DNA of 64,000 nucleotides from Aureispira anguillae. GTDB taxonomy: Bacteria; Bacteroidota; Bacteroidia; Chitinophagales; Saprospiraceae. The stretch is from positions 2,969,716 to 3,033,715 of the forward strand of contig NZ_AP026867.1 of NCBI RefSeq assembly GCF_026000115.1. Reading direction: 5' to 3'. A program made the position numbers and the translations under genes. Every line of letters begins with the position of its first letter. Position 1 is the stretch's first letter. This document shows, piece by piece, positions 4,244 to 44,808 of this stretch. Under the pieces are notes generated by a model. That model did no database searches. It was not told the DNA's origin and saw only the letters and a list, made by a program, of their open reading frames with translations.

Positions 4244-4247
4244 CCCC

Positions 4248-5102: not shown

Positions 5103-5135
5103 AAAAAAAGAGCCTCCTTATTCAGGAAGCTCCAT
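5103..5135 (-). terminator. Putative rho-independent terminator
   Basis: Imperfect 8-bp stem hairpin (gagcctcc / ggaagctc) followed on the minus strand by a T-run (A-run 5103-5109 on plus). Lies downstream of the T9SS cargo gene ending at 5209. Confidence 0.4.
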
Positions 5136-20270: not shown

Positions 20271-22277
20271 ATGAAAACAATACTAACGATTATCTGTTTG
20301 TTATTTGTTGTTACACAAATTTATTCCCAAGGAGTCGGTATTGGAACAGTACCCAATGCTTCTGCCATGTTGGACGTAAGTGCTACCAATAGAGGCTTAT
20401 TAATTCCTAGAATAGCCCTGCTAAACACCTTAGATGGCAGTACCATTAGCAATGGTAATATTACCTCTTTATTGGTCTACAATACGGCTACGGTTGCTGA
20501 TGTTGTGCCTGGTTATTACTATTGGACGGGTGCAGTTTGGCAGCCCCTAGGGAATGATGCGGACCACGACATTACCAATGAAATTCAAGACTTATCTTAT
20601 GACCCTAATACAAACATCCTATCCTTAACCAATGATGCGAGCCCTGTTGATTTAACTGCTCTAAAAGATCAGGATTGGTACGAAGTGGGAGGCACCACTC
20701 AAGCCAACCATATCAACGATAACATATACACACAAGGCAATGTAGGAATTGGAACAACTAGTCCCTCCACCAAACTACAAATTGGTTCTGGCGCAGGTAC
20801 TTATAGAACTTGGATGGATTATGGAATCTATCTAGGAGATGATACAGATGGAATTTATGTTGGGGTAAAAGATGAAGGAGCAGATAGAGAAGATGCGATT
20901 ATTGCATGGGGAGATAACCCTGACGAAAGTTTACGTTTTTTATACAATCAAACTGGCTTGACCACTTCAGAGGAGCACATGAGAATCCAAGGCGGTTCTG
21001 GAAATGTAGGAATTGGTACGGCGATTCCAGCCACTAAATTACATGTTTATGATGAAGTAAATGGCGTGTTTACAGGAGCAATAATAGACAATAGAAAAAC
21101 CTATGGTGTAGGGACTGGCATTGATGAAGTAAGTAGATTGTCTCTTGCTCTTAGTGAAGCAGGAACCCCCAACCCACTTAATCGGGTCATGGGTTATATA
21201 GAAGCAGGAACGCATTCAGAAACCAACTCAACGGAAGGTTGGCTTAGCTTGGGAACAAGATCTGCAACTGTTGTAAGTGAGCGATTGCGGATTATTAATA
21301 ATGGTAATGTAGGAATTGGTACCCCAACTCCTAGCCAAAAATTACATCTAGAAGGCAATCAATACATGCATGATGCCAATCAAAGTGAACTTCATTTGGC
21401 TTCCGAAAACAATAGTTCTAACCACAGTGCCGATATTAGAATGTCTAATTTAACCTCTGGTAACGGCTGGTTAATTACAGAAGGAGCTTTAAATGCCAAC
21501 GATAATTTTACCATTCAATCTTTTAATAGTGCCAATCAGTACCATCAAAGGTTATACATCGATCACGCCACAGGCAATACAGGAATTGGTACCAATACCC
21601 CAACCAGCAAACTTACGGTAAATGGCGTACTAGAAATCAATAAAGTGAGTGATGTTAGTACGATTTATTTTACCAGCAGTGCCACTGAACCAGGTTATAT
21701 CCGACATAGTGGAAATAGCAACAATGCAGAAATGCGATTTGTTGCTTCTGACGACTTTGATGCAGGAAGTCCTGGTGATAAGTTTACCTTTGGGGGGGAA
21801 ACAGGAAATGTCTTTACTGAAGTAATGAGAATCCAAGGCAATGGAAGTGTAGGAATTGGTACTACTGCGCCTGCTCAACGCTTACACGTTGCTGGGAATA
21901 TTTTAGTATCTGGAACGATTAGTAGTTCAGACAAGAGATATAAAACGGGCATTACAAAACTAGAACATAGCACAGCCTTATTGGCACAAATTAATCCTGT
22001 TTCTTATCATTTTAATACTGCTGCGTTCAAACAAGGTCAATTCGATGACAAATTGCATTTTGGTGTAATTGCACAAGAGTTAGAAACAATTTTACCTAAT
22101 TTAGTTTATACAGATGAAGAAGGCTACAAAGCTGTTAATTACACCGATTTGATTCCTCTACTCATCAAAAGCAATCAAGAACAACAGGCTCAAATCAAAA
22201 AACAAGAGAAAAGATTAGCCCAACAAGAAGCTCAGATGGAGAAATTACTTCAAATGCTCAACGCTTTAAAGCAATAA
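20271..22277 (+). CDS. Tail-fibre-like secreted protein with C-terminal peptidase S74 intramolecular-chaperone (auto-processing) domain
   Basis: Signal peptide. Five copies of a ~90-aa repeat, each containing GN(V/T)GIGT..P..KL. C-terminal ...SSDKRYKTGITKLEHSTALLAQINPVSYHF...HFGVIAQELETILPNLV... followed by a coiled coil is characteristic of S74 chaperone domains of phage tail fibres and endosialidases. Confidence 0.6.
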   Translation: MKTILTIICLLFVVTQIYSQGVGIGTVPNASAMLDVSATNRGLLIPRIALLNTLDGSTISNGNITSLLVYNTATVADVVPGYYYWTGAVWQPLGNDADHDITNEIQDLSYDPNTNILSLTNDASPVDLTALKDQDWYEVGGTTQANHINDNIYTQGNVGIGTTSPSTKLQIGSGAGTYRTWMDYGIYLGDDTDGIYVGVKDEGADREDAIIAWGDNPDESLRFLYNQTGLTTSEEHMRIQGGSGNVGIGTAIPATKLHVYDEVNGVFTGAIIDNRKTYGVGTGIDEVSRLSLALSEAGTPNPLNRVMGYIEAGTHSETNSTEGWLSLGTRSATVVSERLRIINNGNVGIGTPTPSQKLHLEGNQYMHDANQSELHLASENNSSNHSADIRMSNLTSGNGWLITEGALNANDNFTIQSFNSANQYHQRLYIDHATGNTGIGTNTPTSKLTVNGVLEINKVSDVSTIYFTSSATEPGYIRHSGNSNNAEMRFVASDDFDAGSPGDKFTFGGETGNVFTEVMRIQGNGSVGIGTTAPAQRLHVAGNILVSGTISSSDKRYKTGITKLEHSTALLAQINPVSYHFNTAAFKQGQFDDKLHFGVIAQELETILPNLVYTDEEGYKAVNYTDLIPLLIKSNQEQQAQIKKQEKRLAQQEAQMEKLLQMLNALKQ

Positions 22278-22330: not shown

Positions 22331-23536
22331 ATGGAAGCATATATTTATGATGCCCTACGAACCCCAAGAGGACGAGGAAATAAAAAAGGCGCTTTGGTTG
22401 GAACAACAGCAACACAACTCGTTGTAACGGTTATGGATGCCCTACGCCAACGCCATCAATTGGACACCACCCAAGTAGAAGACATGATCTTAGGTTGTGT
22501 AACGCAAATTATGGATCAAGGGGCCAATGTTGCCAAAACAGCTGCCCAACATTCGGGGTATGGCGAACACCTTACTGCTGTTACCCTAAATCGCTTTTGT
22601 GGATCGGGGTTAGAAGCTGTCAACCAAGCCGCTGCCTATATCAAATCGGGTTTTAACGACTTGATGTTAGCAGGTGGTGTAGAATCAATGTCTAGAGTAA
22701 AAATTGGATTAGATGGCGGTGCCATTGCAATGGATCCTTCTGTTGCTATGCCTGGGCACTTTGTTCCGCAAGGTATTTCTGCCGATTTAATCGCTACTAA
22801 ATATGGTTACTCTCGTAATGATGTTGATTTATTTGCCTTAGAATCTCAAAAACGTGCCGCTAAAGCTTGGGCTGAAAATGCCTTCGAAAAATCAGTTATT
22901 GCCGTTAAGGATATCAATGATTTCTTGGTATTAGATAAAGATGAAAATGTTCGCCCAAGTACCACCCTAGAAGGACTTAGCAACTTAAAGCCAGCTTTTG
23001 AAAAACTGGGTGCAATGGGTGGCTTTGATGCTGTTGCCATTGATCGTTATCCCGAAGTTGAAGCAATTAATCACGTTCATCATGCAGGAAATTCCTCTGC
23101 TATTGTAGATGGTGCGGCCTTGGCATTGATTGGCAGTAAAGCAGCAGGCGAACGACTTGGTCTACAGCCTAGAGCAAGGATTCGTTCGGTTGCCACGTAT
23201 GGTACAGATCCTACCATTATGTTAGTGGGGCCAGCTCCTGCTAGTAGACGTGCGCTAAAAAAAGCAGGGATGTCCAAAACCGATATTGACCTATATGAAG
23301 TCAACGAAGCCTTTGCTTCTGTTTCTTTGCGCTTCATGGATGACCTTGGGGTTGACCACAACAAAGTTAATGTCAATGGAGGAGCAATTGCCTTGGGACA
23401 TCCTCTAGGAGCTACAGGGTGCATGTTAATGGGTACGGCATTAGACGAGTTAGAAAGACGAGGATTGAGTACCGCACTAATTACACTCTGTATTGGAGGA
23501 GGTATGGGAATTGCGACTATTATAGAACGAGTATAA
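22331..23536 (+). CDS. fadA: Acetyl-CoA C-acyltransferase (3-ketoacyl-CoA thiolase)
   Basis: Thiolase signatures: active-site Cys region [12 protein letters not shown]-terminal [14 protein letters not shown] and CIGGGMG. Confidence 0.9.
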
Positions 23537-23633
23537 GCGATCTTTAAATCCTTATTAGTTCGCTCAAAAATTCTTAACTCATTTCTATGGCATTTTCAAC
23601 CAATAAGTCATTTGCATTCGTAATTTTTTAACT

Positions 23634-24056
23634 ATGATACAAAAACTAATAGCAGGATTTTTAGGCGGTTTGTTTTACATTCTTATTACTTGGTTAGCAA
23701 CCCTGAGCGGAATTTTGGAATGGTACAAAAATTTTGATCCGAATCATATTACGGAGCTGGTTTCTATTTTTGCCCCCTTCTCGCTCATGGCCATGTTTAT
23801 ATTTGCGAGTATATATGCATACCACAAATGGCAGCCCCAAGAAAAAAGGAAAAAAACATTTAGAAAGTTAATGATAATCGGTTGTGGGTTTGCCTTTGGT
23901 GCTACCGTCACACAATTATTATTGATGCAAATAGATGGTACTCCAATTGGTAATTCACTGATTATTGCAGGCTTATTTTTTGCGAGTAGTCTATTTCTTT
24001 CATTACTCATTTCTACCTTTTATTTATTTATCAAAAATATCAATCAAGAAGATTAA
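23634..24056 (+). CDS. Small integral membrane protein (about 4 TM helices)
   Basis: 140-aa ORF with four hydrophobic segments, tightly packed between the thiolase and FadB-like genes. Confidence 0.4.
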   Translation: MIQKLIAGFLGGLFYILITWLATLSGILEWYKNFDPNHITELVSIFAPFSLMAMFIFASIYAYHKWQPQEKRKKTFRKLMIIGCGFAFGATVTQLLLMQIDGTPIGNSLIIAGLFFASSLFLSLLISTFYLFIKNINQED

Positions 24057-24062
24057 ATTATA

Positions 24063-26207
24063 ATGGAACATACAGCAATAAAAAATGACCTCCTTGAATA
24101 TGTAATTGATAGCGATGGATTCGCCACGATTACAATCAATATGGTCAAGGAACCAACCAATCTATTTAGCATTGATTTTATCAAGTACTATCTAGAAATT
24201 GCGCAACAAATTGTAGAAAAGCCACTGGTTAAAGGAATTATTCTAACTTCTGCCCATCGTGACTTTATGGCTGGTGCCGATCTTAAATTTATTAGTAAAC
24301 CACCAGAAGATAAAGCAGGGCTTTTTCGAGAAATCATAGAAGTGCATAAGGGCTTTCGTGCCCTCGAACAGTCAGGCAAACCCTTTGTTGCTGCGATCAA
24401 TGGAACTGCTTTAGGAGGAGGTTATGAACTTGCGTTGACTTGCCATCATAGAATTGCACTGAATAGCTCCAAGATAAAGATTGGCTTGCCAGAAGTGCAA
24501 CTGGGGCTATTGCCTGGTGGCGGTGGCACACAACGTCTTAGTTATCTAATTGGTATTCCTAAAGCGACTGCTTATATTCTTCAAGCCAAGCAATTTAGAC
24601 CCGTTCAAGCTTTAGCAGAAGGCTTAGTTGATCAAATTGCTGACGATCAAGATGCCCTTTTAGCCAAAGCTAAACAATGGATTTTGGAGCATGAATCAGT
24701 GCAGCAACCTTGGGACAGCAAAAACTATAAAATCCCACAAGGGGGCTTGATGTCCAAAACTGGCTCCGATACCATGATAGGAGGAATTGGAAATTTGCGT
24801 AAAAAAACACATGGAAATTACCCTGGCGCACAATACGCTATGGCAGCTATCCACGATGGAATGTTATTGCCTATTGATCGAGGCTTAGAAGTTGAAGCTC
24901 GCTATTTTATTAAAGCCTTTTATTCTAAAGAAGCACAAAACATCATTCGTACTGGATTTTTTGCCATCAATGAAGCTAAAAAGGGAAAACTAAAACCCAA
25001 AGGGTTTGATTTTTTCAACGTCAATAAAGTGGGCATCTTGGGTGCGGGAATGATGGGAGCAGGAATTGCTTATGTGTCTGCTAAGGCTGGGATGCAAGTT
25101 GTACTCAAAGATGTAAGTCTTGAACAAGCAACGAAAGGCAAGGAATATTCTACTCATCTCCTACAAAAAAGCGTTGCTAAAGGTCGCTTATCTACTGAAG
25201 CCATGCAAGATACGCTTCATAGAATAACACCAACCCAAGAAGCAGCAAGCTTAGAAGGCTGTGATTTGATTATAGAGGCTGTTTTTGAAGATCCAGCGTT
25301 AAAAGCTAAAGTAACTCAAGAAGCAGAACCTAAAATTGCAGCCAATAAAATCTACGCTTCCAATACTTCTACCATTCCGATTAGTTCGTTGGCAAAAGCT
25401 GCCGAGCGACCTCAAAATTTTATTGGGATGCACTTCTTTTCTCCCGTTGATAAAATGCCGCTCGTTGAATTGATTGTTGGTCAACAAACATCCGATTATG
25501 CTGTGGCTGCTGCCATTGATTATGTCACTCAAATTGGTAAAATTCCAATTGTTGTAAATGATAGTAGAGGATTTTTTACTTCTAGGGTATTTTCTATGTT
25601 TACTCGTGAAGGAATTCTTTTACTAAAAGAAGGAGTGCCTGCTCCTATGATCGAAAATATAGCTCGACGAATAGGGATGCCTGTTGGTCCTTTAGCGGTT
25701 ACGGACGAAGTTTCTCTTACGCTAATGCTTCACGTAATGGACGCAGATGGTGGGGAAAAGAATCCAGTTCATCAAGAATTGTATGCCACGATCAAAAAAT
25801 TAGCCATTGACCTTGATCGACCAGGCAAAAAAGCGGGAAGAGGATTTTATGAATACCCAGAACAGGGCAAAAAGCATTTGTGGTCGGGTTTAACGGAACA
25901 CTTTCCTAATAATATTGATTATTTAGAGGCCAATATCATTGGCAAGCGCATTTTGCATATTATGGCACTAGAATCTTATAAGTGCTTGGAAGAAGGCGTG
26001 TTAAATTCTCCGACAGATGGCGATGTTGGTTCTTTAACTGGCTTTGGCTTTCCTGCTTATACTGGTGGCGTTTTTTCTTACATCGATTATGTAGGCGTTC
26101 AAAATTTTGTGGCAGATTGTGATCAATTTGCAGCGGCTTATGGTTCTAGATTTGAAGTTCCTGCTTCACTTCGCCAAATGGCTGTGGCTGGCAAAACTTT
26201 TTACTAG
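24063..26207 (+). CDS. fadB: Fatty-acid oxidation multifunctional protein: enoyl-CoA hydratase / 3-hydroxyacyl-CoA dehydrogenase
   Basis: N-terminal crotonase fold (…FVAAINGTALGGGYELALTCHHRIA…). Central NAD-binding GxGxxG (VGILGAGMMGAGIAYVSA). 714 aa, typical of FadB/FadJ. Confidence 0.9.
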   Translation: MEHTAIKNDLLEYVIDSDGFATITINMVKEPTNLFSIDFIKYYLEIAQQIVEKPLVKGIILTSAHRDFMAGADLKFISKPPEDKAGLFREIIEVHKGFRALEQSGKPFVAAINGTALGGGYELALTCHHRIALNSSKIKIGLPEVQLGLLPGGGGTQRLSYLIGIPKATAYILQAKQFRPVQALAEGLVDQIADDQDALLAKAKQWILEHESVQQPWDSKNYKIPQGGLMSKTGSDTMIGGIGNLRKKTHGNYPGAQYAMAAIHDGMLLPIDRGLEVEARYFIKAFYSKEAQNIIRTGFFAINEAKKGKLKPKGFDFFNVNKVGILGAGMMGAGIAYVSAKAGMQVVLKDVSLEQATKGKEYSTHLLQKSVAKGRLSTEAMQDTLHRITPTQEAASLEGCDLIIEAVFEDPALKAKVTQEAEPKIAANKIYASNTSTIPISSLAKAAERPQNFIGMHFFSPVDKMPLVELIVGQQTSDYAVAAAIDYVTQIGKIPIVVNDSRGFFTSRVFSMFTREGILLLKEGVPAPMIENIARRIGMPVGPLAVTDEVSLTLMLHVMDADGGEKNPVHQELYATIKKLAIDLDRPGKKAGRGFYEYPEQGKKHLWSGLTEHFPNNIDYLEANIIGKRILHIMALESYKCLEEGVLNSPTDGDVGSLTGFGFPAYTGGVFSYIDYVGVQNFVADCDQFAAAYGSRFEVPASLRQMAVAGKTFY

Positions 26208-27618: not shown

Positions 27619-27795
27619 TTGATTAGATTGTTTAGACGCAATATCTAAAATCTAAAGCAAGATTTACCATATTGCAAAGAATTTAATATTTCTATAACTA
27701 AAACTATAGTTAAACAACATTAATCCTACAAAAAGCCCTGCGACCTATAATGCCGCAGGGCTATAAACATAAAATACTAACCTTATTAGTTTCTT

Positions 27796-28653
27796 TTATT
27801 GTAGGATCAACTCTTTGAAAATTTGATCTATTTTGCCCTCTGTAACAGAAGCGTACACCATCTCATAATTAATATCTTTAATTTCTTCGGTAATTTCAGT
27901 GGGTTCAAAATCTACCTCGCTGTATTGATAGATCGACCATTTTTTGTCCACATATTCTAAGGCGGTCAAGTTTTCAATCCAATCTCCTGAGTTTAAATAA
28001 GTAGTTTGCCCTTTATGGGTTGCAATCGACCTAATTTGCGGTTGATGAATGTGCCCTAACACTACATAATCATAACTTTTTTCAATGGCTAATTCTGCTG
28101 CAACTGTTTCAAAATCCTTAACGTATTTCACGGCTCTTTTCACACTATCTTTTACTTTTTTAGACAAAGACATTCTAGGTTTCCCTACCGATTTTAGCAC
28201 ATAATTCACCCCTAAATTAATCGCCACCAAAGCATCATACCCTGCTCCCCCCAATTTGGCCAACCACTTGGCACAGGTAACAGAAGTATCAAATACATCG
28301 CCATGAAAAAACCAAGCAACTTTTCCATCCAGTTCCAACAACAATTTGTTGTCCATATAAAAATTCCCCATTTGCATTGGAACAAATTTACGAAGCATTT
28401 CATCGTGGTTGCCTGTCAAATAATAAACTTTTGTTCCTTTAGAAGCCATTTTTACAATTTGACTAATCACCGCCAAATGTGGTTTAGGAAAATAGCTTTT
28501 TTTGAATTGCCAAATATCAATAATATCACCATTCAGCACCAATATTTTAGGTTTGACGGACTTTAGATAGTTTACCAATTCTGTTGCATGGCAGCCATAA
28601 GTTCCCAAATGAATGTCAGAAAGTACCAGAACGTCTAATTTTCGCTTTGCCAT
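27796..28653 (-). CDS. Calcineurin-like metallophosphoesterase, PlcP-like (alternative: LpxH-like)
   Basis: Metallophosphoesterase motifs: LSDIHLG (DxH), LNGDIIDIW (GDxxD), LTGNHDEM (GNHD/E). Start taken at MAKRKLDV. Sits immediately downstream of the BtaA/BtaB-like genes. Confidence 0.6.
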   Translation of the reverse strand: MAKRKLDVLVLSDIHLGTYGCHATELVNYLKSVKPKILVLNGDIIDIWQFKKSYFPKPHLAVISQIVKMASKGTKVYYLTGNHDEMLRKFVPMQMGNFYMDNKLLLELDGKVAWFFHGDVFDTSVTCAKWLAKLGGAGYDALVAINLGVNYVLKSVGKPRMSLSKKVKDSVKRAVKYVKDFETVAAELAIEKSYDYVVLGHIHQPQIRSIATHKGQTTYLNSGDWIENLTALEYVDKKWSIYQYSEVDFEPTEITEEIKDINYEMVYASVTEGKIDQIFKELILQ

Positions 28654-28655
28654 TG

Positions 28656-29303
28656 CTATCGATAAGGTTTTATGCCAACAAATGAAAAATATTCCCACAG
28701 TCCCCAATAAGCCCTCTGCACATCTGAAGATAAGGTCGAAAACTTATTTTCTAAAACAGGCAATAAATGCCCGTCCATTCGAACATGATTGTTCTTCATA
28801 TGCATTTTGAACAACGGATTTCCACTGTTGTGAAAATCAACAACGGCAATGATTCCTCCTGGTTTAATATCTTTATAAGCTTGTTCAATTAAGTTCTCCC
28901 ACTGAGGATTTATCATTGTCAACGCATAAGAAAATACCACTACATCAAAGCTTTCCTCCCGCAGCAAAGGTCTTTCCCCATAAGCCTGAGGCAATAAATC
29001 TACTCGATTGCTATAGGGCTCCATCTTTTTCTGCGACAAAGCAATCATATCTTCTGAGACATCCATTCCTACTAATTGTGCATTTACAAAATAAGAAGCA
29101 AAATTATGTAAATTATACCCTGTACCACAGCCCACTTCCAGAATTCGAATAGCAGCATCTCGCGCTATAGGCAGTTGGTGCACCAAATTAGTTCTACCAA
29201 AAAGAAATGCCCACCTCGTTTTGTCATAAATTTTGGATTGGAACTTATAATATCTCTTCATCGCATGATTTTGCGAAGTAATGTCTTGGAATGCTGGAAT
29301 CAT
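28656..29303 (-). CDS. Class I SAM-dependent methyltransferase, BtaB-like
   Basis: SAM-binding motif I ILEVGCGTGYNL. About 215 aa. Co-directional with and adjacent to the DUF3419 gene, as in the btaA-btaB operon. Confidence 0.55.
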   Translation of the reverse strand: MIPAFQDITSQNHAMKRYYKFQSKIYDKTRWAFLFGRTNLVHQLPIARDAAIRILEVGCGTGYNLHNFASYFVNAQLVGMDVSEDMIALSQKKMEPYSNRVDLLPQAYGERPLLREESFDVVVFSYALTMINPQWENLIEQAYKDIKPGGIIAVVDFHNSGNPLFKMHMKNNHVRMDGHLLPVLENKFSTLSSDVQRAYWGLWEYFSFVGIKPYR

Positions 29304-29420
29304 AATTTAATGTTATTTTATATGGTTCTTTGATGACCACAAATTATTCTTATAATAAAAATAAAGGCGTAAGTAGCTCTCTCGTTCGTGTGATTGGGAA
29401 AGACAATACGAGTCTGAATT

Positions 29421-30590
29421 TTACGATTGTACCACACCACAATAAACGCTACCATAGGTGCCTACTCGATCTTGAAGGTGTTGTGCTTTTGTAACTTGAT
29501 CATCAAAATTGACCTTTCTTCTTACAAAATCAGGAAAGAAATCTATTTTTACTGCTCCTGATCGTAGTAGTATTTTAGTGCCAGGTCGGCTATTTTTGAG
29601 GATTAAATCCCACTCCTCTTCCAAGGCAGGGACATCGTTGGCAGCCAACCAGTCTTGATGATCCAACAAGACAAAATGACTGTATGAATTAGGATTGTCT
29701 TTGAGAAATTGTGAAATGGTGGTTGTATGGGTCTGTATTTTTTCCTGTTCTTTTTTTAGGGTATCAAAGTGTTCTTTTTTCAGATAATTAGGGCAGCATT
29801 CTGGAGTATATTTTCCATTGATATAAAGCTGCCAAAAATAATTATCACGAATTGGTAATTTGGTAAAAATATAGCGCAATGAATCTTGAATAAAACGAAT
29901 CACACCACCAATATATTCCTCCTCTACCAACTTAGATTGGGATCTTGGTATACCCAATAAACTTAGCGTAACAGGCTGTTTCATTGCCCATTGAATAAAA
30001 TTCCCAATGATCTTTTTTTCAATGATATTGTACCAATAAGTCTGAATTTCTAAGGTAGGAGCATTCAACAACTGTTGAACATTGGAGTACAAGGATTTTC
30101 GCAGGCGCATATAATAACCAAACAACCAAGCAAAAGTCCCCGCTGTACCATAAAAATAAAAACTGGGACGAAAACGATTAGCACCAAAGTAAGGTTCTAC
30201 TTTTTTGTCCCAAAATTTTTGAGCAAAATCAGGCAAATGCTCCCTTAGATAGCGCTCATAACAATAGATTGGCGTTTCGTGCTTCCCCTCTCCAAAAAAT
30301 TGAAACAACTGGCTGTGGGCATCTATCTTGTAAAAGGCTTTTTTTAGTTCTAACAACGAATTTTGGCGGTAATTGACATCTACACAGTGAATTGCAGCAG
30401 GTTTATCCAGCGCATAGTCCAAGGCATTGCAACCCGCACTTGTAATCATAACCAGTTCACTGGCTTCGTCAATTTCAAGTAATGCTCGATCACATTTGGG
30501 ATCTTCCCAACAAGTGTTGTAAATTAGATTATTACCATGGATTTTGCCAAACATCCAATCTTTTGCCTTATTTGTAGCAGCTTGAATCAT
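29421..30590 (-). CDS. DUF3419 / BtaA-like S-adenosylmethionine:diacylglycerol 3-amino-3-carboxypropyltransferase
   Basis: 389 aa. N-terminal pattern …NTCWEDP…DRALLEIDEASELVMITSAGCNALDY… is characteristic of the BtaA (DUF3419) family. Confidence 0.6.
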   Translation of the reverse strand: MIQAATNKAKDWMFGKIHGNNLIYNTCWEDPKCDRALLEIDEASELVMITSAGCNALDYALDKPAAIHCVDVNYRQNSLLELKKAFYKIDAHSQLFQFFGEGKHETPIYCYERYLREHLPDFAQKFWDKKVEPYFGANRFRPSFYFYGTAGTFAWLFGYYMRLRKSLYSNVQQLLNAPTLEIQTYWYNIIEKKIIGNFIQWAMKQPVTLSLLGIPRSQSKLVEEEYIGGVIRFIQDSLRYIFTKLPIRDNYFWQLYINGKYTPECCPNYLKKEHFDTLKKEQEKIQTHTTTISQFLKDNPNSYSHFVLLDHQDWLAANDVPALEEEWDLILKNSRPGTKILLRSGAVKIDFFPDFVRRKVNFDDQVTKAQHLQDRVGTYGSVYCGVVQS

Positions 30591-30752
30591 ACTTATTTTT
30601 GTTGTAATTAAATAAAGTATTTTACGTTGCTACAAATAAACAGCATTTGGCTCAAACCCTAACCAATATAAAGTTTAAGGATATAAAAAATCCTTTTAAT
30701 CATTTATTTACAAAGCCATCTAAAAATTAAGCTTTTGTAAAATCGCCTCTTT

Positions 30753-31802
30753 TTAATCTTTTAACTGCTGCATAATTTCTGTACAAGTTTTCTGTTTGTC
30801 CTTGGCATTTGTAATTAAACCAGAAGCTGCAATTCCCCAAACACCTGTGCTTAAAATTGCCTTAATATCAGATGGATTAATTCCTCCAATAGCCAATACA
30901 GGAATATCTATTTCTTGTGCTTTCATTTGGTCGATAATTCTAGTATAACCGTCTATTCCCAAAACAGGGCTTATTTTTTTCTTTGTTGTTGTATACCGAA
31001 AAGGCCCCAAGCCAATATAATCCACTTGCTCCTTAGACAGTCGTTGTACATCTTCCCAAGTATTGGCTGTTCCACCAATTATTATATCTCCTACTATTTT
31101 CCTAGCTTCTAACGGAGACATATCTTCCTTGCCTAGATGCAATCCATCTGCTTGGACAGCCTTGGCAACAGCTGCATTGTCATTGATGGTTAACTTAACC
31201 TGATAGTTTTGGCAAATTGTTTTGGCAGCCATAGCCGTATCCAAGTACTCTTGAAAGGTTACTTCCTTCATCCTTAACTGCACCCATTTACAACCTGCTT
31301 GGCAGGCTTCTTTAATCGCTTCTAAATGCGTTAATCCTACCTTAGATTGAGAAACATAATGCAATCGTGGAATCTCTTTTTTTATCATTGTCAATTCTTT
31401 TTTTAGGACTTGAACATAGTCCTCCATAAATCGGTATTCTTTGGTTTTTAATCGTTTTCTAATCGCAGAAATAGGAAAGCTAATAATGCCAGAAGCTTGA
31501 TGTTTTACGGCTATATCTTTCCCTTGATAATCCTTATAAGCAATCCATTCAAAGCCCAGTTGGTCTACTAAATATTGTCCCAAAGCATAGCCCAACCCTG
31601 TTGCTATCATAAATTTACGAGGACGTTTCCACCAAGTCGTTTGCATTGCATTTTCAAAGGCATCATCCAATAAGGAAATCGTCAAAGTAGCAATTTCCTT
31701 CCCACTGTATTTTTCAATTAGCCCCTCTCCCAATTCCAGCGCATCTTTTTTCCAAGCCAATTCCTTTTTGTTTAATGTTTTTTCTTCGTATTGCCCCATC
31801 AA
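30753..31802 (-). CDS. thiE: Thiamine-phosphate synthase (ThiE domain) with ~140-aa N-terminal extension
   Basis: The C-terminal ~200 aa carry ThiE motifs (…ADGLHLGKEDM…IIGGTANTWEDV…DYIGLGPFRYTTTKK…IPVLAIGGI). The N-terminal 140 aa are unassigned. Confidence 0.6.
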   Translation of the reverse strand: MMGQYEEKTLNKKELAWKKDALELGEGLIEKYSGKEIATLTISLLDDAFENAMQTTWWKRPRKFMIATGLGYALGQYLVDQLGFEWIAYKDYQGKDIAVKHQASGIISFPISAIRKRLKTKEYRFMEDYVQVLKKELTMIKKEIPRLHYVSQSKVGLTHLEAIKEACQAGCKWVQLRMKEVTFQEYLDTAMAAKTICQNYQVKLTINDNAAVAKAVQADGLHLGKEDMSPLEARKIVGDIIIGGTANTWEDVQRLSKEQVDYIGLGPFRYTTTKKKISPVLGIDGYTRIIDQMKAQEIDIPVLAIGGINPSDIKAILSTGVWGIAASGLITNAKDKQKTCTEIMQQLKD

Positions 31803-31808
31803 TTTATA

Positions 31809-32579
31809 CTACTTATGTTTATAATGATACCCCAATAAAGTGTTATTAGAATTTAAAAATGCCGTGATATAACTTTTGGCCTGTTGGCAAGCTTCTAATA
31901 AATCATAACCCAAGGCTAGGTTTGCTACAATTGCCGCAGAGAGCACACAACCAGAGCCATGTTTCTCATAATATACTTTTTGTTGAGGCGCTAAGGTATG
32001 TATTGTATTATCTTCTAATAAAAAATCCGTTCCTTTTTGCACCTCGTTATGCCCGCCTTTGTATAACACATTGCAGTAATCCGCTAAGGCTTTGGCAACA
32101 GCCATTAGAGCTTGTCCCTCTGTTCCTATCTTTTTCAATTCTTGTGCATTGGGAGTCAGTAAATAAACATTCGAAAGCCATTGTTTTAATGTTTCTAAGC
32201 TTACTTCTTCATGGAAATTAAATCCTGCGCTTGCTCTAAAAATCGGATCGACAACAATCTTTAAAGAAGGATTTAACCTTAGCAAATGTTTGGTGATAGC
32301 CGCTAAAACTTCCCAATTTTGAATCAAACCTATTTTACAAAAATGAATGGGGTATTCTTGAAACAATATGCTTATTTGTGCCTTTATCAAGTCTTGATCG
32401 ACCCAGTCTACCCGCCTAAAAACAGACTCATGCTGAACCGTTATGGCAGTAGCAACTGTCAGCCCATAAACCCCCTGCGCTTCCATTGTTTTGGCATCTG
32501 CAACCAAACCTGCACCACCACTAGGGTCAAAGCCTGCAATGCTCAACGCATAGGGTCTATTGCTTGTATTTTTTTGCAT
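31809..32579 (-). CDS. thiD: Hydroxymethylpyrimidine / phosphomethylpyrimidine kinase
   Basis: ThiD motifs: ALSIAGFDPSGGAGLVADAKT near the N-terminus and the C-terminal GSGC. Start taken at internal Met. Confidence 0.8.
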   Translation of the reverse strand: MQKNTSNRPYALSIAGFDPSGGAGLVADAKTMEAQGVYGLTVATAITVQHESVFRRVDWVDQDLIKAQISILFQEYPIHFCKIGLIQNWEVLAAITKHLLRLNPSLKIVVDPIFRASAGFNFHEEVSLETLKQWLSNVYLLTPNAQELKKIGTEGQALMAVAKALADYCNVLYKGGHNEVQKGTDFLLEDNTIHTLAPQQKVYYEKHGSGCVLSAAIVANLALGYDLLEACQQAKSYITAFLNSNNTLLGYHYKHK

Positions 32580-33166
32580 AATTTCTGGTAATTTTCTAGT
32601 GCTGAAGCCTTGCCATTCCACACTGCCCCCAAAAAAGCAACCGCTTTGAACCCACGCTCATAAGCAGCTGCTAAAGTTCTCGCATTAACTCCTCCCAAAG
32701 CGATCAATTGGAACGGGAAAGACAAATCATGTATGCTCCAATTTTCTGTTGGTTGATAATTGGGTTTAGAAATACTTGGAAAAACAGGGCTCAACGTCAC
32801 ATAATCCAATTGCTTTGGTAAGGTTAAAAGATCTATTCTTTGGTGAATTGCTGTGCCTATTATTCGGTCTTTAGCATGACACGTTTCTATTAGTTGTTTT
32901 AATGCCTCAGAAGATAGCGCTCTACGAGCAGACTCTGTTAAGTGTACCCCCAATAAATTAAATTCTTCGACCAGTTCTAAATGCTGATGAAGGATAATTC
33001 TAGCATAAAATTTAGCATTAATTTTTTTTAGTAAGTCAACACAATCTGCCTTAGTTGCCATTGGTTTTCTAAGATGCAAGCAAGGTAAACCATTTTCAAA
33101 TAAATGATTCAGGATAAGTGCTTCTTCTTGAAAAAAAATAGGCGTTGAGTACAATCTATGCTCCAT
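32543..33166 (-). CDS. ThiE/TenI-family protein (second thiamine-phosphate synthase or thiazole tautomerase)
   Basis: 207-aa TIM-barrel ThiE/TenI-like pattern (…LHLRKP…HLELVEEFNLLGVHLTE…IALGGV…). It is clearly distinct from the ThiE domain at 30753-31802. Confidence 0.5.
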   Translation of the reverse strand: MEHRLYSTPIFFQEEALILNHLFENGLPCLHLRKPMATKADCVDLLKKINAKFYARIILHQHLELVEEFNLLGVHLTESARRALSSEALKQLIETCHAKDRIIGTAIHQRIDLLTLPKQLDYVTLSPVFPSISKPNYQPTENWSIHDLSFPFQLIALGGVNARTLAAAYERGFKAVAFLGAVWNGKASALENYQKLCKKIQAIDPMR

Positions 33167-36172: not shown

Positions 36173-37519
36173 CTAAGATAAAACAAGCTGCCCTTGATTA
36201 GGATTGATTAATTTACCTGCTGACCAAACCCTTACTCCATTTACAAAAGTATGTTTAACAAGCCCCTGTAATTGTCTACCTTCATAAGGCGAAACTTTGT
36301 GTTTTGCTTCAATTTTTTGCCGAGTAATGGTGTCCCATTCTTCAGGATTCCAAACGACTAAATCAGCATCATAACCCAGCTTAATTTTTCCTTTTTGCTG
36401 CTCCAAACCAATAAATTGGGCAGGTGCTTCGCAAAGAATTGTACGAATCCGCTCCAACGTCAGACCATGCGCTTGTCCCTTGGTCCACAAAGCAGGCAAA
36501 GTAAACTGAATACCAGAGATTCCCCCCCATGCTTTTTGGTAATTTCCAGTATCTAATTCTTTGATACGTGGCGGTGCTGGAGAGTGATCTGAACCTATAA
36601 AATCAAGCGTTCCATCCATCAAAGCTTCCCATAACAAAACATTGTTTGCTTGTTCTCGAATGGGTGGTGCACATTTATAACGAGTATCTCCATTGGGAAT
36701 GGTTTCTGCATCAAAGAAAATATAATGGGGACAAGTTTCTACGGTTACAGGCACCCCCCGTTTTTTTGCTGCTCGGATGGCTGGCAAACTATCGGAAGAA
36801 GACAAATGGACAATATGAGTAGAATGTTGGTATTCTTCAGCCAATTGCAACATCAATGCAACCGCATCATTTTCCCATTTTCGAGGTCTTGATGCCAAAT
36901 AGGCTAGATAATTTGTTGGGTTTTGGGTCAATTGGGCATCAAAAGCCCCTGAAGCCAATTCACAATGCACCAAAATTGGTAAATTAGTTCCTTTTAAGGC
37001 CTCATAAGCCGCTCGCAAAGTGGCTTCATCAGCATTGGGGAATTCGTCAATGCCACTATGGGTCAAAAATGCCTTAAAGCCCAATACACCTCGTTTTGCT
37101 AAAGGGGCTAAACTGGTCGTATTTCCAGGAATAATTCCTCCCCAAAAGCCACTATTTACGTGTAATTTACCTTTTGTAGCAGCCAATTTATGATCTAATT
37201 CTTTTACATTAACCGTAACAGGAGAAGAATTTAGTGGCATATCAACCAAAGTAGTTACTCCCCCAGCAGCAGCAGCAGTTGTCCCTGTGTAAAAGCCCTC
37301 CCATTCTGTCCGCCCAGGCTCATTGATGTGTACATGAGGGTCTATAATTCCAGGCATCAACACCTCATTTTCAAAATTATAAAAAGGAATAGATGCCGTA
37401 GTCTTGATACAACCTTTCTGAATTTTTTCAATCTTACCTTGATTGATCCAGATGGTGTATTCTCCAATGGTATCGGGCAACATGACCCGCTTACTATAAA
37501 TGATTAGTTGCTCGTTCAT
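36173..37519 (-). CDS. allB: Allantoinase (cyclic amidohydrolase)
   Basis: Metal-dependent amidohydrolase motifs (PGIIDPHVHINEPG, carbamylated-Lys region, HxH). 448 aa. Allantoinase is favoured over dihydroorotase or dihydropyrimidinase because it is adjacent to xdh and puuD. Confidence 0.65.
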   Translation of the reverse strand: MNEQLIIYSKRVMLPDTIGEYTIWINQGKIEKIQKGCIKTTASIPFYNFENEVLMPGIIDPHVHINEPGRTEWEGFYTGTTAAAAGGVTTLVDMPLNSSPVTVNVKELDHKLAATKGKLHVNSGFWGGIIPGNTTSLAPLAKRGVLGFKAFLTHSGIDEFPNADEATLRAAYEALKGTNLPILVHCELASGAFDAQLTQNPTNYLAYLASRPRKWENDAVALMLQLAEEYQHSTHIVHLSSSDSLPAIRAAKKRGVPVTVETCPHYIFFDAETIPNGDTRYKCAPPIREQANNVLLWEALMDGTLDFIGSDHSPAPPRIKELDTGNYQKAWGGISGIQFTLPALWTKGQAHGLTLERIRTILCEAPAQFIGLEQQKGKIKLGYDADLVVWNPEEWDTITRQKIEAKHKVSPYEGRQLQGLVKHTFVNGVRVWSAGKLINPNQGQLVLS

Positions 37520-37523
37520 TTGC

Positions 37524-38945
37524 TTAATCTTCTAATTTAGCCCCTTGCATAATCCAAGTCTCAATTTTGGTTCGTTCCTCCATGGTCATTTTTGTTTTAT
37601 TTCCCTGAGGCATTGTTTTCGTGATCACAGCACGATTCATTATTTTATCTTTACTGGCAACAATTTGTTCGGGGGTATCAAACATCATCCCACCTTGCGC
37701 CACAATAAAGACATCATCTGTTGGTGTTTTGGAATGGCAGGGTCTACAACGCTGCCCAATTATTGCCTCCACTTCTGTAAAAGGAACTTTGTCGGCATTT
37801 GCCAATTCTTCTCTAGATTTGGGAGCCGTTAAATAAATGGTGAGCACGAGTAGCACAAGGCTAATGGGCACAATCCACCGATTGAGTTCTCCCCTTTCCC
37901 ATTGATTATGAAAATGCTTGATGCCTGCTCCTGCCAAAGAAATTAGTAACAAAATTAAGACACTGTGCTCGTTCCCAAACGTGCTTGGGAAATGATTGCT
38001 AATCATAATAAAAAGCACTGGTAAGGTAAAATAATTGTTGTGATAAGAACGCCATCCTGCTCGTTTACCCAACTCCCCATTAGGCGCTCTCCCTTCCTTA
38101 GCGGCAAATACCATTTCTTTTTGAGCAGGTATAATTACAAAAAATACATTTCCTGCCATCATGGTTCCCATAATAGCTCCCATGTGAATATAAGCTGCCC
38201 TAGGATTAAATACAATGGACAAACAATAGGCTACCGCTAATAAATAAAGCACCATGATCAAAAAGAAAATAGGGCGTTTTTCTGGTGCCAATAAAGAGGT
38301 TTGAGACAACAGTTCATAAAAAACCCACGAAAATACAATCGATGATACGCCTATCATTACCCCCAAAACGGGAGAAAGCTGTGTTATTTCAGGGTTTAAC
38401 AGAAATGATTCTGCATTAAAATAATAAACGATTGTCAGCAGACAAGTCCCTGTTAACCAAGTAAAATAAGCTTCATATTTGAACCAATGTAAGTGTTTAG
38501 GAATTTGTTTGGGGGCGATTTTATATTTTTCCAAAAAATAAAATCCTCCACCATGAATTGCCCAAAGATTCCCAGCCAATTCATCTCGAATTTCTTCTGT
38601 TCGATTTAAGGAATTTTCTAAAAAGACAAAATAGAAAGAAGCTCCCACCCAAGAAATACCAAAAATAATATGCAACCAACGGAAAATTAGATCCAACCAC
38701 TCTTGCAAATGCGCCTGCCAAGGGGTTCCTGCTACTTGGTTATAAATAATATAGGCTCCTGAAAAAAAGGCGGCAATAAAAAACAACCATTTCCTAAAGA
38801 AGCGCATATTGGCGGCAAAATCTTTATCTTTTTCATTCTGACGGTTAGGGTCTTCTGCATATTGTTGTACCAATTTCTGGATCACTACGGTTCCCGAAAG
38901 GCAAATACAAACAACAATCCCTATCATCGTTTCCACTACTCCCAT
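37524..38945 (-). CDS. puuD: Membrane-bound urate hydroxylase PuuD-like (multi-TM domain plus C-terminal cytochrome c)
   Basis: About 9 TM helices followed by a soluble C-terminal domain with CRPCHS (CxxCH). This architecture and the gene neighbourhood match the PuuD urate oxidase family. Confidence 0.65.
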   Translation of the reverse strand: MGVVETMIGIVVCICLSGTVVIQKLVQQYAEDPNRQNEKDKDFAANMRFFRKWLFFIAAFFSGAYIIYNQVAGTPWQAHLQEWLDLIFRWLHIIFGISWVGASFYFVFLENSLNRTEEIRDELAGNLWAIHGGGFYFLEKYKIAPKQIPKHLHWFKYEAYFTWLTGTCLLTIVYYFNAESFLLNPEITQLSPVLGVMIGVSSIVFSWVFYELLSQTSLLAPEKRPIFFLIMVLYLLAVAYCLSIVFNPRAAYIHMGAIMGTMMAGNVFFVIIPAQKEMVFAAKEGRAPNGELGKRAGWRSYHNNYFTLPVLFIMISNHFPSTFGNEHSVLILLLISLAGAGIKHFHNQWERGELNRWIVPISLVLLVLTIYLTAPKSREELANADKVPFTEVEAIIGQRCRPCHSKTPTDDVFIVAQGGMMFDTPEQIVASKDKIMNRAVITKTMPQGNKTKMTMEERTKIETWIMQGAKLED

Positions 38946-39077
38946 AATCTTATATACTTATCGTTTTATTTTGTGTTTTAATTCCTTTCATCGCTACCCT
39001 AAAAAGGAATTTTAGCTTCAAAGAAGCGAGTAAGATAGTAGAAAAAAATCAATTTTTCTAACAAAATTCTGAGTACA

Positions 39078-39133
39078 GAACAAAATTAGTAGGTTAAAAA
39101 TTACTCGCAATGCTCGTGAGATCAGTTAACTGT
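39078..39133. repeat. Partial, inverted copy of the MITE-like element at 19917-20160
   Basis: acaaaattagtaggttaaaaatt (matches 19929-19951) is fused to ttactcgcaatgctcgtgagatcagttaactgtgctg, which is the reverse complement of 20088-20125 (cagcacagctaactgatctcacgagcactgcgagtaa) with 2 mismatches. Confidence 0.55.
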
Positions 39134-39151
39134 GCTGCTGCCTTATAATAC

Positions 39152-39625
39152 CTAGCGATTAAGCTGCTGCCTCAAAAAATTCACAACCTGCCGTCTATGT
39201 CTTAAAATATGAACAATAGCATGTTCCATCAATTGTTCAAAATCATAAGTCACCCCCCATCTTGTTTCAAATTTCCACACTTCGATTGCTTCATTAGACT
39301 TATAATAAATATCCTTAAAAACTAGCTCGGTATAGTCCAACATCGCATCAATTTCTACCATTCCCTCTTCAGGATCTTCTATTTTTTGGTCGTATTCCAA
39401 CCATTTGTCAGAACGAATAGACTGAATGTAATTCGCATAGGTATACCCCGACTGCACGATATGGAAGGTAAGACTTTGTATTGACCGACAATCCACATCC
39501 TTTGTTTCTTTGTCTACCACCTCAACAAACTGAGGCAGCGACAAACCACTTAATATTTCTTTGTATTCAAGCGCCGCTTTCTGATATTCATCCATTAGCG
39601 CTACCAACATTCCATTTTTTTTCAT
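39152..39625 (-). CDS. DinB/YfiT-like metal-dependent hydrolase-fold protein
   Basis: About 160 aa, four-helix-bundle DinB_2-like pattern with conserved His residues near the C-terminus (HAIVHILRHRRQ). Confidence 0.45.
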   Translation of the reverse strand: MKKNGMLVALMDEYQKAALEYKEILSGLSLPQFVEVVDKETKDVDCRSIQSLTFHIVQSGYTYANYIQSIRSDKWLEYDQKIEDPEEGMVEIDAMLDYTELVFKDIYYKSNEAIEVWKFETRWGVTYDFEQLMEHAIVHILRHRRQVVNFLRQQLNR

Positions 39626-39641
39626 CGTAAAAATTAAGGTT

Positions 39642-41906: not shown

Positions 41907-42266
41907 TCCATTAATTGGTTGGTTGCTGCGAATAAAATCAGTTGCAGCAAATTAATTCGACATTCAACGAATAGAGTTGTATAAGCGAAAATGCAAGTTT
42001 TTTTTTGAAGATCAAGGAAAAACAGAAACTCATAGCTGTAAGCTATGATGTTGAGCATTTGACGATGAGATTCAGGAAAAAATAAATTGGCAGCCATACC
42101 TTTTCATTATTTATTTCCTTGGGTCATGATATAGTTCATGAACTTCATTTCGCAATAACTTCTAATATACTTACAAATTTGTTGGTAAAAAATAAAAATG
42201 TAAAAAATCCTATTAATACTAGTTGTTCCAATAGGATTTTAGTTCTTAACATTAACGGAGTAATGA

Positions 42267-43661
42267 TTAATCAAATAAGGTAGGAAAAAAGCTTCTATAA
42301 TGTGCGATCATCAATTGACGTAACAATAGACGTTTGTAAGCTACAGAGCCCCTAACATCTGCAATGGGGCTTATTTCTTTTTGGGCAATTTCCAAAGATT
42401 CGTCTAATACTGATTTACTAATTGTTTTTCCAATAAAAAATTGGGCTGTTTTGGCAAGGTATTTTGGTACAGGAGCCACCCCACCAGCAGAAATTCCAGC
42501 TTTGATGACTTCTCCTCTAGTATTGCATTCTATGCGTATAGCAGAATTAACAGAAGCAATATCCAGATAAGTTCGTTTACAAACTTTTTCAAAATTAAAA
42601 TAATGAGTTGATCGTGGCAATTCAAAATTTACTTCTTGCACAAATTCATCTGCTTTTAAATCTAGGGTTTTGTACCCCTTAAAAAACTGCTCTAGCGGCA
42701 ATTCACGTAGGGCACCATTGGCATTCAAAACAATATTAGCATTTAAAGCCAAAAGAAAAACCGCTAAATCACCAATAGGAGACGCATTAACCAAATTGCC
42801 TGCAATTGTCGCCATATTGCGAATTTGAAGGGATGAGATCAAATTAAAAAAATGATCTGTATTAGGGCTTAAGGATTGAATTATCTCAGATTGTTTGAGT
42901 GCTTCGGTAGCGGTTGAAGCGCCAATATGGCAATAGCCGCTCGCCTTCCAGATTCCCTTTAAGTCATTTCTGTTGTAAGCATGAACAATGTCTTCTGAAA
43001 ACATTTTTTGGGGGCGTTGAACATACAAATCTGTTCCTCCTCCTACCCAAATCGCTGACGCAGGAATTGCATCAGGCTTGGTTATAGGACTAGAATCTTT
43101 TAACTTTTTTGCTATTTCTAAAAAATAATTGGGTAAGAACCGATGTTCGACCAACCAACCTAATTTATCTTTATGATTTTTTGCAACCAACTGTTGAACA
43201 ACATATTCTGCGGCTCTTTCGATTGATTTGTATCCCGTACAACGGCAAATGTTGCCAGCAATAGCCAATATTGCTTGATCCTTTGTTATTTTTCCTTCAG
43301 ACAACGCCAGTCCACAAAGAGACATAATAAAGCCTGGTGTACAAAAACCACATTGTGTTCCTCCTTCGTCTGCCATAGCTTGCTGCACCACATTTAGCCC
43401 TTCAATATTGACTCCCTCTATGGTAACAATATGCCGACCTTCTACATTTCCTAAGGGCATAAGACAGGAAGTTACTGATTCATAGATTACTTTATCATTT
43501 TTTAAGGTCCCAATCAAGACAGTGCAAGCACCACAATCCCCTTCTCTACATCCCAGCTTAGTCCCTGTAAGACATTGTTGATACCGTATAAAATCCGCCA
43601 AGATCATCCCTGAGGGCAAATCTGTCTCTATAAGTTCCTGATTCAAAACAAATTTCATCAT
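42267..43661 (-). CDS. xdhA: Xanthine dehydrogenase small subunit (2Fe-2S plus FAD-binding)
   Basis: N-terminal plant-type and second [2Fe-2S] cysteine clusters (CREGDCGACTV, CGFCTPG, CRCTGY). The FAD-binding CO-dehydrogenase flavoprotein domain follows. 464 aa, as in two-subunit bacterial XDH. Confidence 0.85.
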   Translation of the reverse strand: MMKFVLNQELIETDLPSGMILADFIRYQQCLTGTKLGCREGDCGACTVLIGTLKNDKVIYESVTSCLMPLGNVEGRHIVTIEGVNIEGLNVVQQAMADEGGTQCGFCTPGFIMSLCGLALSEGKITKDQAILAIAGNICRCTGYKSIERAAEYVVQQLVAKNHKDKLGWLVEHRFLPNYFLEIAKKLKDSSPITKPDAIPASAIWVGGGTDLYVQRPQKMFSEDIVHAYNRNDLKGIWKASGYCHIGASTATEALKQSEIIQSLSPNTDHFFNLISSLQIRNMATIAGNLVNASPIGDLAVFLLALNANIVLNANGALRELPLEQFFKGYKTLDLKADEFVQEVNFELPRSTHYFNFEKVCKRTYLDIASVNSAIRIECNTRGEVIKAGISAGGVAPVPKYLAKTAQFFIGKTISKSVLDESLEIAQKEISPIADVRGSVAYKRLLLRQLMIAHYRSFFPTLFD

Positions 43662-44352: not shown

Positions 44353-44808
44353 AAAAATAAAAACCACCTATTTTTTACATTTTACACTTTTGTTACTAAA
44401 AAGTTTGTGTTATAACCTCTAACAAAATATTTTTTGTACAGGTTGTTTTCACTTGGCTTTTATAACATAGGATGATTGTTCCCACAACGATCACTAGGGA
44501 TTGTTATATCAAAAAATAAATCTAATTGGGTTTATTTTCAGATGATGGTCACTAATAGATTATACTTTCTCCTTTGTGTATTTAAGTCACGGTGAGCATA
44601 AGGTTTTCATTTAACTTAAAAGATTTACTCTTAACATATTATAGCATTAATTTTCTGAAAACCAGAAAATTAAAACCGTCCCGTAATGCCTATAGGTAAG
44701 TATCTATGGCTGTATAATAAAACCAAGAGTTCTTTAAAAGTAAATAAAAATTGGATAATCACACAATCTTATTTTTTTACAACCCCCTTTTTTAAAGAAA
44801 ATTGCACC

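Follow-up and report, generated by a model that had tools for sequence, protein, structure and literature searches.

A predicted phospholipid-to-betaine-lipid remodelling operon, btaA-btaB-plcP, in Aureispira anguillae

One question raised by the genome of Aureispira anguillae (Bacteroidota; Saprospiraceae) is what to make of three adjacent minus-strand genes that encode, in the order of reading, a DUF3419 protein, a small methyltransferase and a metallophosphoesterase: do they make up a complete route from membrane phospholipid to diacylglyceryl-N,N,N-trimethylhomoserine (DGTS), a betaine lipid, and if they do, what turns that route on? The genes lie in a 64,000-nucleotide stretch of contig NZ_AP026867.1 (assembly GCF_026000115.1, positions 2,969,716 to 3,033,715), called the window below. 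An earlier note on this DNA, made from the sequence alone, had proposed a candidate cassette for DGTS remodelling under phosphate control. The answer favored here is close to that proposal: the single unit btaA-btaB-plcP probably encodes complete phospholipid-to-betaine-lipid remodelling, most likely induced by phosphate starvation. The BtaA-like, BtaB-like and PlcP-like assignments came through the computational tests; phosphate control is the less secure element.

The scheme would run as follows. PlcP, as a cytoplasmic metallophosphoesterase of the LpxH2 type, would cut the phosphodiester bond of membrane glycerophospholipids, to yield diacylglycerol and a phospho-headgroup from which phosphorus can be recovered; BtaA would move the 3-amino-3-carboxypropyl group of S-adenosylmethionine (SAM) to the free hydroxyl of diacylglycerol, giving diacylglycerylhomoserine; BtaB would then N-methylate this intermediate at the expense of three more SAM, giving DGTS. 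Bacterial BtaA and BtaB, expressed in E. coli, are reported to be enough for DGTS to be made. To judge from Sinorhizobium, Phaeobacter and Flavobacterium, scarcity of phosphate would be what switches the unit on. From homology and gene order, conversion of phospholipid-derived diacylglycerol to DGTS by this operon appears likely; phosphate responsiveness is argued by analogy and is held with less confidence than the pathway itself.

The three gene products

The DUF3419/BtaA-like identity of the first product, proposed earlier, is borne out by profile search: Pfam PF11899 (DUF3419) matches with E=1.1e-105 (354.5 bits, against a cutoff of 28.2), and the match is full length, spanning residues 12-384 of the protein and positions 4-382 of the 385 in the profile. 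Relatives are named ‘BtaA family protein’ at NCBI and S-adenosylmethionine-diacylglycerol 3-amino-3-carboxypropyl transferase at JGI (the KEGG families are K13622 for BtaA and K13623 for BtaB). The Sinorhizobium reference used for comparison was the protein of Sinorhizobium sp. M103, which is near-identical to the S. meliloti copy (frameshifted in strain Ak57); identity to it is 24.4% over 398 aligned positions (E=7e-34). When 34 Bacteroidota sequences were aligned with that of Sinorhizobium, 49 columns proved invariant, among them those of the motifs WED, IxSxGxN and LLDxQDW.

Structural comparison adds little about the substrate of BtaA. A sequence search of the PDB gave no match, and no DUF3419 structure is solved. 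The AlphaFold (AF2) model is confident (predicted local distance difference test, pLDDT, 90.4; predicted template-modelling score, pTM, 0.90); its fold matches in the PDB are weak (best E=4e-3, template-modelling scores of ~0.2-0.3), nearly all of them class I SAM methyltransferases. Such matches are compatible with a SAM-using enzyme, and say nothing on the acceptor.

The second product falls, in both Pfam and NCBIfam, into generic class I SAM methyltransferase domains only. S. meliloti BtaB itself gives the same generic NCBIfam hits; the libraries thus appear to hold no BtaB-specific model, and direct comparison is the more informative. The two proteins align from residue 10 of each, with 38.2% identity over 152 amino acids (E=6e-32, 103 bits); the alignment takes in an N-terminal motif common to both, YxxQxxIYDxTRxxxLFGR, and the SAM-binding motif LEVGCGTGxNL. 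The nearest solved relative, the phospholipid N-methyltransferase PmtA (8ys9), scores 38 bits, as against the 103 bits to S. meliloti BtaB. Many homologues are labelled by JGI ‘S-adenosylmethionine-diacylgycerolhomoserine-N-methlytransferase’. A methyltransferase of BtaB size and type, as the earlier note had it, is therefore a fair description. The note had named a lack of the BtaB and BtaA catalytic residues as a refutation; the methyltransferase and the DUF3419 protein both keep motifs in common with the Sinorhizobium proteins.

The third product requires more discussion, as its public name disagrees with the assignment made here. NCBI and JGI both call the protein and its homologues UDP-2,3-diacylglucosamine diphosphatase, or LpxH, and one explanation to be weighed is that it is simply the housekeeping lipid A enzyme, lying beside btaAB by accident. 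Besides the names, this explanation can point to the nearest solved structures, which are of LpxH (at ~36 bits), and to the broad occurrence of close relatives, 60-67% identical, in many Flavobacteriia. That the protein is a calcineurin-like phosphoesterase is common ground: Pfam assigns it to Metallophos/Metallophos_2, and the DxH, GDxxD and GNHD motifs seen earlier are all present, within five blocks (SDIHLG, GDIIDIW, GNHDE, HGD and GHIH) that align with those of PlcP from S. meliloti and Pseudomonas aeruginosa. The superfamily signature is D-GD-GNH(E/D)-H-GHxH (PMC3087551).

Scores separate the two possibilities. In blastp comparisons the PlcP set gives 153 bits (S. meliloti PlcP, 36% identity), 167-168 bits (P. 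aeruginosa PlcP) and 169 bits (paralog A of Parabacteroides distasonis), versus 48 bits for E. coli LpxH and 52-55 bits for a second group of Bacteroidota proteins, the ‘B’ paralogs. Against the NCBIfam LpxH equivalogs the protein falls well below cutoff (NF003743, 55.3 bits versus 134; TIGR01854, 45.5 versus 190.35), as does S. meliloti PlcP. A neighbor-joining tree (257 columns, 50 bootstraps; a small tree by a simple method) places it with its Bacteroidota orthologs, P. distasonis paralog A and the S. meliloti and P. aeruginosa PlcPs in one clade with 100% bootstrap support; the B paralogs form a separate clade, likewise at 100%, and E. coli LpxH is the outgroup. The earlier note had named clustering with bona fide LpxH as an outcome that would refute it; the protein lies outside LpxH and inside the PlcP clade.

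The comparators in this tree were the S. meliloti and P. aeruginosa proteins, two P. distasonis paralogs from one strain, a Bernardetia paralog and E. coli LpxH. The S. meliloti replicon has one LpxH-like gene (281 amino acids, locus L011), which we take to be PlcP/SMc00171 by its length, its uniqueness and the published literature; the P. aeruginosa homologue (270 amino acids, locus L012), which directly precedes a family 1 glycosyltransferase gene, we take to be the PlcP of the PlcP-Agt pair. Opiyo et al. give the length of ‘Sm LpxH2’ as 281 amino acids (PMC3087551). They also report arginine in block 3 (GNRD) to be specific to LpxH; E. coli LpxH has GNRD and the Aureispira protein GNHD. The B paralogs have GNHD too, so within the phylum the block-3 residue alone is not decisive. 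As to the threshold that Sebastián et al. (2016, ISME J, PMC4796936) used for PlcP, a BLASTP E-value below 1e-40 to the protein of Phaeobacter MED193, the S. meliloti and P. aeruginosa PlcPs can serve as stand-ins for the MED193 protein: tblastn of the Aureispira phosphoesterase gave E=2e-39 and 3e-43, respectively.

The B paralogs are instructive in their own right. Both Bacteroidota clades carry the NCBI name UDP-2,3-diacylglucosamine diphosphatase, and both occur in the one P. distasonis strain: paralog A (L014, 3977-4747) overlaps a glycosyltransferase gene, the classic setting of a PlcP, and paralog B (L015, 4001-4780) lies beside pstS. The B clade, which includes the Bernardetia paralog (L013, 3968-4849), is found in housekeeping contexts and outscores the Aureispira type on the NCBIfam LpxH models, which makes it the better LpxH candidate in Bacteroidota. 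With LpxH of E. coli and other beta- and gammaproteobacteria, then, the third product shares a superfamily, a similar length and a public name, but differs in clade, in block 3, in failing to reach the model cutoffs, and in having operon partners unrelated to lipid A. On this evidence the third gene probably encodes a PlcP-clade enzyme and the LpxH name is probably wrong. If so, the name is probably wrong also for many Bacteroidota relatives that belong with PlcP, and renaming them would affect metabolic reconstructions both of lipid A synthesis and of phosphorus stress.

Organization and conservation of the unit

All three genes are present and co-directional at the positions given earlier (Table 1). 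The earlier description of them as tightly packed or overlapping needs a correction in its second part. The spacings are 117 nucleotides (btaA to btaB) and 2 nucleotides (stop of the methyltransferase gene to ATG of the phosphoesterase gene). The overlap of 52 nucleotides arises from a longest-open-reading-frame version of the phosphoesterase (27796-28707, 303 amino acids) that starts at a TTG; the ATG at 28653 is the likely start, used both in a 100% identical NCBI protein of 285 amino acids (P0121) and in gene calls on identical contigs, and with this start the overlap disappears as an artefact. The 117-nucleotide gap holds no significant RNA structure or internal terminator (z=-1.4), a strong terminator-like hairpin with a T-run closes the set, and a 162-nucleotide AT-rich stretch separates btaA from the thiamine genes upstream. 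A single transcription unit is the best explanation of this layout.

Table 1. Features of the btaA-btaB-plcP unit (positions are those of the window)
Feature	Coordinates	Strand	Description
btaA-like gene	29421-30590	minus	389 amino acids, DUF3419; predicted S-adenosylmethionine:diacylglycerol 3-amino-3-carboxypropyl transferase
btaB-like gene	28656-29303	minus	215 amino acids; predicted SAM:diacylglycerylhomoserine N-methyltransferase
plcP-like gene	27796-28653	minus	285 amino acids; predicted metallophosphoesterase-type phospholipase C; NCBI name UDP-2,3-diacylglucosamine diphosphatase
Intrinsic terminator, end of the three-gene unit	27734-27762	minus	AGCCCTGCGGCATTATAGGTCGCAGGGCT followed by TTTTTGT; 11-bp stem with 8 GC pairs
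Inverted repeat, candidate operator upstream of btaA	30707-30741	none	TTTACAAA-N19-TTTGTAAA
Putative Bacteroidota-type -7 promoter element	30633-30640	minus	TTTATTTG; 43 nucleotides before the btaA ATG

Conservation of the arrangement speaks for a functional unit. The trio stays together in every one of the five Aureispira-clade loci fetched (the window, Aureispira sp. CCB-E and three metagenomic relatives), with BtaA identity falling as low as 60% and with different flanking genes in each; in one of the relatives (L030) the three genes overlap by 4 nucleotides. As the trio is kept while its flanks change, the arrangement is not a matter of chance, and this is good evidence that the genes work together. 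The pair btaA-btaB reaches further: of the 14 Bacteroidota loci examined, which represent Saprospiraceae, Phaeodactylibacter, Eisenibacter, Chondrinema and Tenacibaculum, 11 have btaB directly downstream of the BtaA gene. Among the Bacteroidota loci fetched, the phosphoesterase stands beside btaAB only in the Aureispira clade. One contig scan, with the BtaA protein as query, gave nine loci, with no Aureispira genome among these.

If the assignments are right, many aquatic Bacteroidota carry the BtaA-BtaB pair (Saprospiraceae, Cytophagales, Tenacibaculum, Mesohalobacter); part of the DGTS in seawater, usually credited to algae or to Alphaproteobacteria, could therefore be theirs. A. anguillae, as a cultured bacterium, is open to direct lipidomics.

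A further pair was found on a contig placed in an alphaproteobacterial bin, ‘Thalassovita sp.’ (L022, PBYL01000139.1). Its BtaA and BtaB are 51-53% identical to the Aureispira proteins, far closer than Sinorhizobium BtaA at 24%. The likely cause is an error of binning; the alternative is that the pair was transferred from Bacteroidota.

Control of the unit and competing explanations

The region between btaA and the upstream genes (30591-30752) contains two elements that recur in relatives. The first is a TTTG-containing element some 43 nucleotides before the btaA ATG, at a comparable position, by eye, in five upstream sequences (the window and loci L027-L030). The Bacteroidota -7 consensus is TAnnTTTG, and TTTATTTG is possibly such a box, with an imperfect match. 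A sigma-70 promoter scan (11 sites, 15.8 expected) is uninformative here, because Bacteroidota use other promoters.

The second element is the inverted repeat TTTACAAA-N19-TTTGTAAA, perfect in its 8-nucleotide arms and occurring once in the window, where none is expected. Aureispira sp. CCB-E (L027, 4798-4832) and L028 (4759-4793) keep it at the same distance before btaA, and no full copy of the palindrome turned up except upstream of btaA in loci of the Aureispira clade. As RNA it would fold weakly (-7.5 kcal/mol, z=-0.5) and no T-run follows; the weak hairpin and the missing T-run rule out the repeat as a terminator of the upstream thiE. It may be the operator of some regulator. Its half-site, TTTACAAAAGC, is not enriched in the window (8 occurrences versus 4.6 expected), and there is accordingly no evidence for a regulon within the window. 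An Rfam scan of the whole window gave no hit, so that no riboswitch was found close to the cassette or to the thiamine genes beside it.

Hints of a link to phosphate come from an expression result and from the neighborhoods of related genes. A Flavobacterium johnsoniae gene described as ‘PlcP’, Fjoh_4577, a possible ortholog of the Aureispira phosphoesterase gene, has a transcript fold change of 8.59 under depletion of inorganic phosphate (PMC8115612). The polyphosphate kinase gene ppk1 immediately precedes btaA-btaB, in the same orientation, in Phaeodactylibacter and a relative (L003, 3881-5932; L006, 3811-5913). In a metagenome-assembled genome of Chitinophagales (L008, 5311-5991), the gene for an OmpR-family response regulator ends 10 nucleotides before the PlcP ortholog; the best match of this regulator is PhoB (TIGR02154), with 212 bits, below the cutoff of 296.

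Several points weigh against a phosphate-induced route to DGTS. At the level of lipid, the literature searched for DGTS or betaine lipids in Aureispira, Saprospira and other Bacteroidota holds no lipid-level report, and it holds no lipid, expression or enzyme evidence for any member of the Saprospiraceae. At the level of enzymes, identity of 24% between BtaA and its proteobacterial counterpart does not prove the substrate by homology, and the acceptor could differ; also, the S. meliloti and P. aeruginosa comparators are taken to be characterized PlcPs on length, uniqueness, context and published literature. At the level of linkage, the one flavobacterial phosphoesterase locus examined (L007) has no btaAB within 6 kb; given the many homologues in Flavobacteriia, the connection of this phosphoesterase with DGTS appears limited to some lineages. 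At the level of control, the canonical proteobacterial Pho box CTGTCATNNNNCTGTCAT, allowing up to three mismatches, does not occur in the region upstream of the cassette, where the earlier note had suggested looking for a motif of this kind; its claim of phosphate control was to this extent overstated. The element that is conserved there is a palindrome, whereas PhoB sites are, to our knowledge, direct repeats.

The explanation that draws most on these points keeps the enzymes and the product and gives up the signal: PlcP, BtaA and BtaB would make DGTS as a regular membrane lipid, either constitutively or in answer to some other signal acting through the palindromic operator. Apart from the missing Pho box, it is favored by the inverted repeat, which is the sole conserved upstream element besides the promoter and suggests a dimeric regulator other than PhoB, and by the lack of Pho-regulon genes flanking the cassette in the window. 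Against it, PlcP and BtaAB are induced by phosphate limitation wherever they have been studied (PMC4796936; PMC8115612), and the ppk1 and PhoB-like neighbors in relatives point the same way. Moreover, a missing Pho box of the proteobacterial type carries little weight, as no PhoB site is known to us for Bacteroidota; the scan of the whole window for CTGTCATNNNNCTGTCAT gave 2 hits where 4.8 are expected. Control by something other than phosphate is accordingly unlikely, and it is the strongest of the competitors to phosphate-induced remodelling.

A different proposal leaves control aside and questions the acceptor. BtaA and BtaB might act not on diacylglycerol but on a ceramide, an ether lipid or a lyso-lipid supplied by the phosphoesterase, the product then being some other betaine lipid. 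The divergence of BtaA from the Sinorhizobium enzyme leaves room for this; so does the combination of weak fold matches with the want of a solved structure in the family; and Aureispira marina is reported to contain ceramides. On the other hand, the motifs of proteobacterial BtaA and BtaB are kept along the full length, no sequence feature points to a different acceptor, and the phosphoesterase sits firmly within the PlcPs, enzymes that act on glycerophospholipids. A different acceptor is therefore improbable. A more specific form of the idea, in which a PlcP-like enzyme would free a hydroxylated lipid such as ceramide from a sphingophospholipid, and BtaA and BtaB would turn it into an undescribed betaine sphingolipid under control of a non-PhoB regulator at the palindrome, is a long shot.

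Least probable among the alternatives to PlcP-fed DGTS synthesis, on a par with that last suggestion, is the housekeeping LpxH discussed above. Against it stand the scores, the tree, the block-3 residue, the coexistence of a better LpxH candidate with the PlcP type in one strain and, in addition, the fact that the trio moves together from one genomic context to another.

Known systems and neighboring genes

An experimental precedent is Phaeobacter MED193, in which PlcP is required for lipid remodelling, as established by deletion and complementation (Sebastián et al. 2016). The ‘type 1’ context of that work has btaA and btaB downstream of plcP, MED193 being an example, and its named species include Rhodopirellula baltica and Planctomyces maris (PMC4796936). 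The Aureispira unit resembles type 1 in having a PlcP-clade phosphoesterase, a DUF3419 BtaA and a BtaB of about 210-235 amino acids side by side; it differs in order, btaA-btaB-plcP instead of plcP first.

The same survey bears on how common and how novel the arrangement is. The earlier note had placed plcP beside btaAB in many marine bacteria, which overstates the case: the commonest neighbor of PlcP in marine bacteria is the glycosyltransferase agt, and adjacency to BtaBA is the rarer, type 1 condition (PMC4796936). Table S2 of that paper gives the marine isolates with PlcP and BtaBA within 5 kb as Hoeflea, Phaeobacter, Sagittula, Planctomyces, Rhodopirellula and two strains of Saprospira grandis. 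As Saprospira belongs to the same family as Aureispira, the arrangement has already been catalogued in the Saprospiraceae, and the description ‘poorly documented’ for Bacteroidota holds for the lipid chemistry and not for the genomics. The Aureispira cassette is thus a known pathway, in a gene arrangement known for a sister genus; it is a sound annotation and not a discovery, and the known picture of phosphate-sparing lipid remodelling is unchanged by it.

PlcP-Agt operons, as in P. aeruginosa, SAR11, Methylosinus and Bacteroidota such as Parabacteroides distasonis, follow a related logic: an enzyme of the PlcP clade that releases diacylglycerol is paired with one that consumes it. The partner there is a glycosyltransferase, leading to glycolipids, whereas in Aureispira the partners are BtaA and BtaB, which would lead to betaine lipid.

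Sinorhizobium meliloti is comparable in its proteins more than in its gene order. All three Aureispira proteins are homologous along their length to Sinorhizobium counterparts, at identities of 24% (BtaA), 38% (BtaB) and 36% (PlcP), with the metallophosphoesterase blocks and the BtaB N-terminal motif in common. In gene order the earlier note was mistaken: plcP is not next to btaAB in Sinorhizobium, where, in CP090106.1, plcP stands at 2.072 Mb and btaAB at 2.462 Mb, about 390 kb apart; in Aureispira they form one unit. The S. meliloti plcP and btaAB genes are controlled by PhoB via Pho boxes, and it is a box of this kind that is missing upstream of Aureispira btaA.

The record CP090106.1 (loci L009 and L011) is itself odd. 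It is labelled S. meliloti plasmid pSymB, is 3.72 Mb in length, and carries btaA, btaB and the plcP homologue, which in S. meliloti are chromosomal genes; it would seem to be a chromosome with the wrong label. A frameshift divides its btaA into open reading frames at 3878-4618 and 4543-5127.

The remaining genes in the window are of several kinds. On the strand of the cassette, at 30753-33166, are three thiamine genes (a TenI/ThiE-like gene, thiD, and a ThiE with an N-terminal DUF3806), with no thiamine pyrophosphate riboswitch detected by Rfam. The opposite strand, some 1.6 kb away from the cassette at 22331-26207, encodes a thiolase (401 amino acids) and a fused enoyl-CoA hydratase/3-hydroxyacyl-CoA dehydrogenase (714 amino acids); these are genes of fatty-acid beta-oxidation, and relatives showed no link between them and the cassette. 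The stretches 36173-43661 and 44686-45930 hold a purine-catabolism cluster, whose products are xanthine dehydrogenase-type subunits, an amidohydrolase and a protein with a urate oxidase N-terminal domain, and, nearby, a family 2 terpene synthase. Lastly, at 20271-22277, a 668-amino acid protein has a C-terminal Peptidase_S74 (endosialidase chaperone) domain and, in precomputed annotation, a PTL_trimer domain; the architecture is tail-fibre-like, and the context is chromosomal.

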